A program made the translations under genes and the position numbers. The notes beneath the pieces are model-generated. The model saw only the letters and a list, made by a program, of their open reading frames with translations, was not told where the DNA came from and did not search any database. From sequence record AF017626.1: DNA of 2,662 nucleotides; one strand, 5' to 3'. This DNA comes from Escherichia phage 21. Position 1 is the stretch's first letter, and every line of letters begins with the position of its first letter. This document shows positions 1-730 of the stretch, one piece after another.

Positions 1-165
1 ATGTTACGCCACATGGGTTGGACTGAAGCCGCAGACCTGATTGTTAAAGGTATGGAAGGCGCAATCAATGCGAAGACCGTAACCTATGACTTCGAACGTC
101 TGATGGAAGGCGCTAAACTGCTGAAATGTTCAGAGTTTGGTGATGCGATCATCAAGAATATGTAA
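1..165 (+). CDS. icd: Isocitrate dehydrogenase (NADP), C-terminal 54 codons plus stop; 5'-partial at the window edge
   Basis: Frame 1 translates to [54 protein letters not shown], which matches the E. coli Icd C-terminus from memory with about two substitutions. Stop codon TAA at 163-165. Too short to appear in the ORF track. Confidence 0.88.
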
Positions 166-188
166 TCACTACATGTGTTAAATATTGA

Positions 189-217
189 AACGGGCGTATA
201 ACACGCCCGTTGTTTTA
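189..217 (+). terminator. Rho-independent terminator downstream of icd
   Basis: Perfect 8-bp stem ACGGGCGT (190-197) / ACGCCCGT (203-210) with 5-nt loop ATAAC, followed by TGTTTTA (T-rich, 211-217), 25 bp after the icd stop. Confidence 0.6.
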
Positions 218-232
218 TGATGATGTAAAATC

Positions 233-268
233 TTCCCCAAAACTTTCCCCAAAACCCTTCCCCAAAAC
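233..268 (+). repeat. Three tandem direct repeats of TTCCCCAAAAC (233-243, 245-255, 258-268); candidate arm-type integrase binding sites of the attL P' arm
   Basis: Repeat copies read directly from the sequence, spaced 12 and 13 bp apart. They lie between the icd 3' end and the integrase stop codon, where lambda has its P'1-P'3 arm sites. The functional assignment is inference. Confidence 0.5.
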
Positions 269-278
269 TGGCTATTTT

Positions 279-730
279 CTATGCTGTTTTGATATCTACG
301 ATAATCCAGTCTTTACCACGATCATCATTGTATCGGTCGGTCATTTTTCTGGATTTATGGCCTAACAACTTTTGCGTATCCAGACCCTGTTCCCGATATA
401 ACCGTTCTGACAGAGATCGCTGCTCATGAAATGTGGGCGCAGTTCCTGGCTCCCATTTTATGCCACATTTTTCCCTGGCCTTTTTAAAAGCCGTTGTAAG
501 AGTATTTGCAGAAACCTGGTCTCCTCTGTTTGCTTGAGAGGTAGTGTGACGGTAATGGACCAGATATTTACTAACAACAGCATCCCTGCACTGAGATATA
601 ACTTCACGAAGGGTAATATTCAGAGCATCGCATTTCAGGCTAAGCGGAATAGCAAGTTTTGAACCGGTTTTTTCCTGAGTAATGTGCAACATGTCGTCCC
701 ATATATCAGAGAATTTCAAATTGCAGATAT
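279..730 (-). pseudogene. int: Phage integrase (lambda Int family tyrosine recombinase), C-terminal catalytic portion, separated from its N-terminal part by an IS insertion
   Basis: Minus-strand translation ...ICN-LKFSDIWDDMLHITQEKTG...TFHEQRSLSERLY...LLGHKSRKMTDRYNDDRGKDWIIVDIKTA* aligns with the lambda Int C-terminus (MKWSDIVDGYLYVEQSKTG ... HELRSLSARLY ... LLGHKSDTMASQYRDDRGREWDKIEIK). The H-x-x-R, H and Y catalytic residues are present. Stop TAG at 279-281. The 'M' at 719 in the ORF track is a TTG codon internal to the gene. Confidence 0.85.
728..730. repeat. Target-site duplication TAT (left copy) of the IS insertion
   Basis: TAT immediately outside the IS end at 731; an identical TAT lies at 2041-2043 just outside the other end. 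Confidence 0.7.

Follow-up and report, generated by a model that had tools for sequence, protein, structure and literature searches.

A stretch of DNA that runs from the end of icd into an integrase gene raises two questions: which element does it belong to, and where in it does host sequence give way to phage sequence? We addressed both for a stretch of 2,662 nucleotides of Escherichia phage 21 (sequence record AF017626.1), called the window below and numbered from its first letter. Junctions built in this way have been known from phage 21 and e14 since about 1990. A preliminary description, made from the letters alone, had read the order of features in the window as icd 3′ end, terminator, direct repeats and integrase 3′ end pointing toward icd. 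All four are present in this order, at the coordinates listed below. We consider it very probable that a lambdoid prophage of the phage 21 type (Jouyvirus) is integrated in icd and that positions 1-280 are the O-P′ side of its attL. A phage 21-type attL at icd is an already known structure, and the value of its recognition here lies mainly in annotation; it touches no open question.

The window was aligned with the attP regions of phages 21, ev017 and 1H12, with the attL and attR of the prophages of E. coli AF57 and ETEC 67-1, with the attL and icdC of the e14 element of K-12, and with one unoccupied icd-iraM locus. The window spans the phage side of attL and int only, and the wider context of the prophage was read from the relatives. 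Its leftmost part holds the end of icd and the region that phage and host attachment sites have in common:

1-165, plus strand: 3′ end of icd, the last 54 codons and the stop; an open reading frame with the 21-type ending GDAIIKNM
about 1-11, no strand: putative crossover zone (core/overlap), where the homology of attP and attB starts on the left
2-218, no strand: attP/attB homologous block of 217 bp, made of the icd tail and the terminator; the direct-repeat block of the prophage
189-217, plus strand: intrinsic icd terminator, phage-borne; a hairpin (189-211) with a T tract behind it, and with a terminator annotated in the phage 21 record OL657228

The protein encoded at 1-165 comprises the 54 C-terminal residues of NADP-isocitrate dehydrogenase, opens with MLRHMGW and matches the C-terminus of the Iso_dh family in Pfam (profile positions 301-348 of 348); its counterpart is annotated as icd in every E. 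coli genome match. From the second residue onward it is the same as the fragment carried by the free phages 21, ev017 and 1H12, the first codon being ATG in the window vs CTG in the three phages. It is 2 residues and 12 nucleotides apart from the native or displaced allele, which ends GEAIIENM: D410 and K414, the signature of the 21-type tail, are found in the window, whereas unoccupied and displaced copies have E410 and E414. According to PMC4129442, which cites Campbell et al. 1992, phage 21 substitutes 165 bp at the icd 3′ end, and the window starts exactly 165 nt ahead of the icd stop. The GDAIIKNM tail, the homology over 2-218 and this published length all uphold the proposal that the element carries a replacement 3′ segment of icd. 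At bases 12 (C) and 18 (T) the window is unlike all three free phages compared, and the origin of the first ~20 bases, phage or host, is for this reason uncertain.

The limits of the shared region were read from the alignments. Phage (…TTTTTATATAC) and host icd (…GCTGAGATGA) have unrelated sequences before base 2 (before base 1 in the case of e14); past 218, phage (GATGATGTAAAATCTTCCCC…) and host (TTATGTGGATATT…) diverge anew, and the sequence is phage-only from 219. When window positions 150-720 were used as a query, element-free genomes matched at query positions 1-69 only, i.e., up to window position 218. Among the 5426 complete E. coli genomes, 3016 have an uninterrupted icd-iraM locus, while 1659 (~30%) carry the same 21-type junction, with a match to at least 80% of window positions 150-720. 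The direct-repeat blocks at icd are unusually long (PMC7192596).

Beyond the shared block, the window contains an integrase gene in two pieces, its first 24 codons lying beyond the window:

279-730, minus strand: 3′ fragment of the integrase, the catalytic domain past Arg-I with the HxxR, H and Y motifs; an open reading frame matching Phage_integrase
2044-2662, minus strand: 5′ fragment of the integrase, the arm- and core-binding domains up to GQRLGD; matches Arm-DNA-bind_1

The gene reads toward icd, has its stop at 279 and follows icd by 113 nt. Its product matches the lambda-type arm DNA-binding domain (PF09003, 1e-16) and the catalytic domain Phage_integrase (PF00589, 8.5e-24) in Pfam; in ETEC 67-1 the corresponding 3′ fragment is annotated as a partial tyrosine recombinase and the 5′ fragment as a partial ‘phage integrase Arm DNA-binding domain-containing protein’. 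Once freed of the insertion sequence that separates the fragments, the Int of 356 aa is 98.6% identical to the Int of phage 21, 61% to the IntE of e14 and 34% to lambda Int, and it agrees at 100% with the uninterrupted Int of E. coli AF57. At the DNA level, positions 7-730 are 97.2% identical to phage 21 (OL657228, M61865), and free Jouyvirus phages, e.g., ev017, come as close as 98.9%; 28 phage records match this query, and for 25 the match covers at least 80% of its length. The preliminary description had read the region as an attL-type junction and favoured a phage-21-like element; these identities, together with the end of the host match at 218, agree with an int-proximal attL of such an element. 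The reason that it gave, an integrase that is ‘lambda-Int-like, not e14-IntE-like’, is inaccurate, because IntE is nearer to this Int than lambda Int is.

Three direct dodecamers lie between the terminator and the int stop:

231-242, plus strand: candidate arm-type Int site, first P′ copy, TCTTCCCCAAAA
243-254, plus strand: candidate arm-type Int site, second P′ copy, CTTTCCCCAAAA
256-267, plus strand: candidate arm-type Int site, third P′ copy, CCTTCCCCAAAA

The second copy is replaced by the variant ACACTCCCCAAAA in ETEC 67-1. Three matches to YYTTCCCCAAAA were found vs 0.08 expected, and none of 200 shuffled sequences reached three. The phage 21 record OL657228 carries, at the same positions as the dodecamers of the window, the annotation ‘attP consists of 3 subsites P1P2P3; consensus YYTTCCCCAAAA’. 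A fourth exact dodecamer is found in the P arm of phage 21, at a distance of 130 bp from the left end of the homology (L001 2365-2376), and again at attR in both lysogens examined, AF57 (L002 38104) and ETEC 67-1 (L003 41763). Arm-type repeats are thus present on both arms, three times on P′ in the window and once on P in phage 21 and at the attR of the lysogens; the outermost dodecamers of phage 21 span 397 bp. Wang et al. reportedly delimited the minimal attP of phage 21 at 366-418 bp in 1997, and the same work is said to support the binding of Int to the dodecamers. With the GenBank annotation and this study as a basis, we infer that Int uses the dodecamers at 231-267 as its P′ arm-type sites. 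Read on the minus strand, positions 231-270 give GTTTTGGGGAAGGGTTTTGGGGAAAGTTTTGGGGAAGA, a T4G4-like array of four G tracts from which, judging by its letters, a G-quadruplex might arise in the int-sense strand or its RNA.

The organisation of the window follows that of phage 21 (OL657228, M61865) closely: the order of icd tail, terminator, three copies of YYTTCCCCAAAA and int is the same, and the boundaries of the homology and the 165-nt tail ending in GDAIIKNM are common to both. Phage 21 differs from the window by 17 substitutions in bases 1-218, and the window has an IS629-like element in int and the attL form of the site, not the attP form. The likeness to the lambda (B-O-P′)-int arrangement, already drawn in the preliminary description, holds for the layout, with three P′ sites by the int stop and an arm-binding Int: in the attL of lambda (B-O-P′), too, int reads toward att and the interval from the core to the int stop holds three close direct arm-type sites (P′1-P′3), and both lambda and the phage 21-type have an Int with an N-terminal arm-binding domain (PF09003) and sites on both arms. 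Lambda differs in its distant Int (the 34% identity given above) and in the sequence of its arm sites. Its P′ sites are ~80-130 bp from the crossover according to its annotation vs ~230-265 bp in the window, where they are farther away because the icd tail and the terminator lie in between. Unlike in lambda, the target in the window is a protein-coding gene that the phage repairs.

The attribution has to be weighed against e14, which in K-12 (icd/icdC) occupies the same target in icd, also brings a replacement tail and terminator, and has a triple direct repeat after the terminator; IntE is, at 61%, the next closest integrase. We give practically no credence to a junction of an e14-type element, since an Int that is 98.6% identical to that of phage 21 vs 61% to IntE is joined by differences in gene order and in sequence. 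In e14, ymfD, ymfE and lit stand between attL/icd and intE, whereas the icd-int interval of the window lacks them and int comes 113 nt past icd; the repeats of e14 read TTATCAAAA (L004 ~1640-1690), not TTCCCCAAAA; its tail has D398 and E414, unlike that of the window; and 32 of the 218 positions of tail and terminator differ. Membership in e14 is ruled out by the Int identity, the gene order and the repeats. The occurrence in e14 of a triple repeat with a different sequence at the same place amounts to a parallel architecture, consistent with the different Int specificities of the two elements, which share the icd site and differ in the specificities of Int and Xis (PMC3530522). The same observation argues against taking the repeats for regulatory or structural elements, in the int 3′ UTR or downstream of icd (as a retroregulator or a minus-strand G-quadruplex), instead of recombination sites. 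Such a role would suit the T4G4-like G tracts of the minus strand and the involvement of sequences downstream of int in the regulation of phage 21 int (Campbell, PMC3530522), but it is highly improbable: RNA structure in the repeat region 222-285 does not exceed chance (fold z = +0.5), the fourth copy stands at a lambda-like position in the P arm and keeps to the phage side at attR, and the Int has an arm-binding domain to match such sites.

A further alternative concerns the point of exchange within the block. If positions 1-218 were the host’s own, the junction would fall at 218/219 and the strands would have been exchanged where the block ends on the right; bases 2-218 do share homology with unoccupied loci (14 of 218 positions differ), host similarity ends at 218, and mosaic tails exist, e.g., in the record of phage D2. 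We nevertheless consider this reading very unlikely. The tail of the window has the phage-type variants and the D410/K414 ending of the free phages, not those of native or displaced copies. In ETEC 67-1, the sequence left of attL joined to that right of attR equals three unoccupied genomes at 100% identity over 1241 bp, the whole 217-bp block of its attR is identical to the unoccupied allele, and its attL departs from that allele already at base 12. Furthermore, icd sequence upstream of its own crossover would be useless to a phage, and the homologies of the 21-type and e14 elements have left ends within one base of each other. Finally, a replacement of 165 bp is what the literature states (PMC4129442).

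The ETEC 67-1 recombinant, the left edge shared by the two kinds of element, the GDAIIKNM tail and the published 165 bp together lead us to infer that, in the phage 21-type attL, the crossover took place at the left edge of the homology block, at about bases 1-11. A phage needs only the part of icd that lies downstream of the crossover, so the edge of the homology would mark it. The preliminary description had held that the core crossover cannot be located from the window; the alignment with an unoccupied icd and with the attP of phage 21, which it had proposed for this purpose, delivered the block 2-218 and its boundaries, and the core was left without recognisable sites. A dyad scan around the homology edge in attP(21), attP(e14) and attB gave no convincing core-type Int sites; the best matches of the scan reached 6/8, and none was common to attP and attB. 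A search for the IHF consensus gave no site in 1-280, and its matches over the whole window were not above chance. With the crossover at the left edge, nearly all of 1-280 would be phage DNA (O-P′), the icd tail included. The host B arm is just off the left end of the window, and the host icd 5′ sequence immediately left of base 1 would be expected to read …GCTGAGATG. In annotation, the prophage boundary is to be drawn at the start of the window. The last 165 nt of icd and the terminator of such a strain are then phage DNA, a point to bear in mind when typing or phylogeny is based on icd.

The position of the crossover also bears on the terminator. The hairpin at 189-211 has a 9-bp stem with 6 GC pairs followed by GTTTTAT, and folds as RNA with -18.5 kcal/mol (z = -2.4 vs shuffles). 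On the minus strand of 189-211, the int-sense RNA also gives a stem, of 10 bp; the sequence being nearly palindromic, the hairpin forms in the int-sense transcript too. Because the crossover lies upstream of it, the hairpin stays linked to int in the prophage, unlike the sib element of lambda. A sib-like stem-loop downstream of phage 21 int is mentioned by Campbell (PMC3530522). A search of the whole window against Rfam with E up to 1 returned the frameshift pseudoknot ALIL described below, a sub-threshold match to the sRNA family tpke11 at 170-234 on the plus strand (20.8 bits vs a gathering score of 43, E = 0.28) and nothing else; the tpke11 match overlaps the terminator and is probably due to chance. 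The prophage sRNAs svsR and C0293 were considered for the spacer between attL and int and rejected: svsR lies in cI, C0293 is specific to e14, and neither is within the window.

These elements can be assembled into a model of integration. The attP would supply the final 165 nt of icd and the icd terminator as a copy of its own, and an Int-mediated crossover would occur at the upstream edge of this copy, at window positions ~1-11. The host icd would be completed by the phage tail and remain functional, and the native tail would be moved to the far end of the prophage (attR), beside iraM. In this process, the N-terminal arm-binding domain of Int would use the three dodecamers at 231-267 as P′ arm-type sites, while its C-terminal domains would act at the core ~230 bp away; the fourth dodecamer would serve in the P arm, ~130 bp beyond the core.

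The int gene of the window is not intact. It is a pseudogene split by an insertion sequence with a duplication of TAT, a fact that bears on the activity of the element and not on its ancestry. The features of the insertion are the following:

731-2040, minus strand: IS3-family (IS629-like) element of 1310 bp, recognised by its inverted repeats, domains and ALIL
728-730, no strand: left copy of the TAT target duplication
2041-2043, no strand: right copy of the TAT target duplication
773-1663: orfB, with HTH_21 and rve (DDE transposase) domains (Pfam)
1589-1705: ALIL frameshift pseudoknot (Rfam, 120 bits)
1660-1986: orfA, with an HTH_Tnp_1 domain (Pfam)

The terminal inverted repeats are 25 nt long, imperfect, and start with TGAACCGCCCC. 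The organisation is IS629-like, with orfA and orfB, a -1 frameshift and a 3-bp target duplication, and the transposase is named ‘IS3-like element IS629 family transposase’ in RefSeq; compared with the IS629/IS3 family, the copy in the window has all the hallmarks tested and no notable difference. With 731-2043 removed, the sequence equals that of the uninterrupted int of AF57. The insertion lies just past GQRLGD and, by homology to lambda Int, leaves the catalytic Arg-I on one side and the Lys, HxxR, His and Tyr motifs on the other. By this analogy both integrase fragments should be inactive. The split after Arg-I would leave a prophage devoid of an Int of its own, and with its int broken the element probably cannot excise by itself: its ability to excise has probably been lost. 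It is thus probably fixed in place by the breakage of its integrase, and attL would stay fixed unless a related phage supplied Int in trans.

The allele with the insertion in int is rare. Four genomes show a match in one piece, and the exact IS/int junction had 0 matches in contigs representing one genome per species. In four ETEC-type genomes the insertion is the same in site, orientation and TAT duplication; the flanks differ from the window at 21 positions and the IS is identical. The presence of the IS at the same nucleotide of int in two prophage backgrounds points, as far as the sequences go, to a recurrent target or to recombination. A broader proposal, in which the 21-type int site would be a recurrent IS629 target that repeatedly fixes prophages and their phage-type icd allele, strikes us as improbable, as does, separately, a second role of the P′ G-tract array in int expression.

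The relatives supply the context beyond the ends of the window. None is identical to it over the full length, the best single-piece match having 99.2% identity. AF57 agrees with the window at 100% in all parts other than the IS and has an unbroken int; its genes run icd-int-xis-lambdoid early genes…tail fibres-sitABCD-icd′-iraM. ETEC 67-1, at 99.2% identity, has the same IS inside int and a degraded prophage of ~21.9 kb terminating in icd′-iraM. The IS copies of AF57 and ETEC 67-1 are both 100% identical to that of the window. The displaced icd′ stands next to iraM in both strains (AF57, L002 38231-38398; ETEC 67-1, L003 41890-42057), and the displaced icd 3′ fragment and the lambdoid genes beyond int that the preliminary description had suggested seeking are therefore found in the nearest relatives.

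The displaced tail at the attR of AF57 (L002 38234-38451) already ends in GDAIIKNM, and its first 62 bases equal those of attL save the first (C vs A); because this displaced tail is of the phage type, the host allele has seemingly been converted by an earlier visit of a 21-type element. The attL of ETEC 67-1 (L003 20001-20028) begins with 28 nt that equal the e14-type attL of K-12 (CAC…ACC) and continues with 21-type variants, a switch that appears to be a sign of further mosaicism among icd-integrating elements. The record of phage D2 (OM475427, L009 601-820), labelled a ‘partial genome’, shows the attL form, preceded by host icd; host-type variants extend to ~117 in its icd tail and phage-type ones follow from ~131, which suggests that homologous exchange may occur inside the 217-bp repeat block. 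As for cargo, the iron/manganese transporter genes sitABCD are found near the attR end both in phage 21 (L001 1-578) and in the AF57 prophage (L002 32868-36317).
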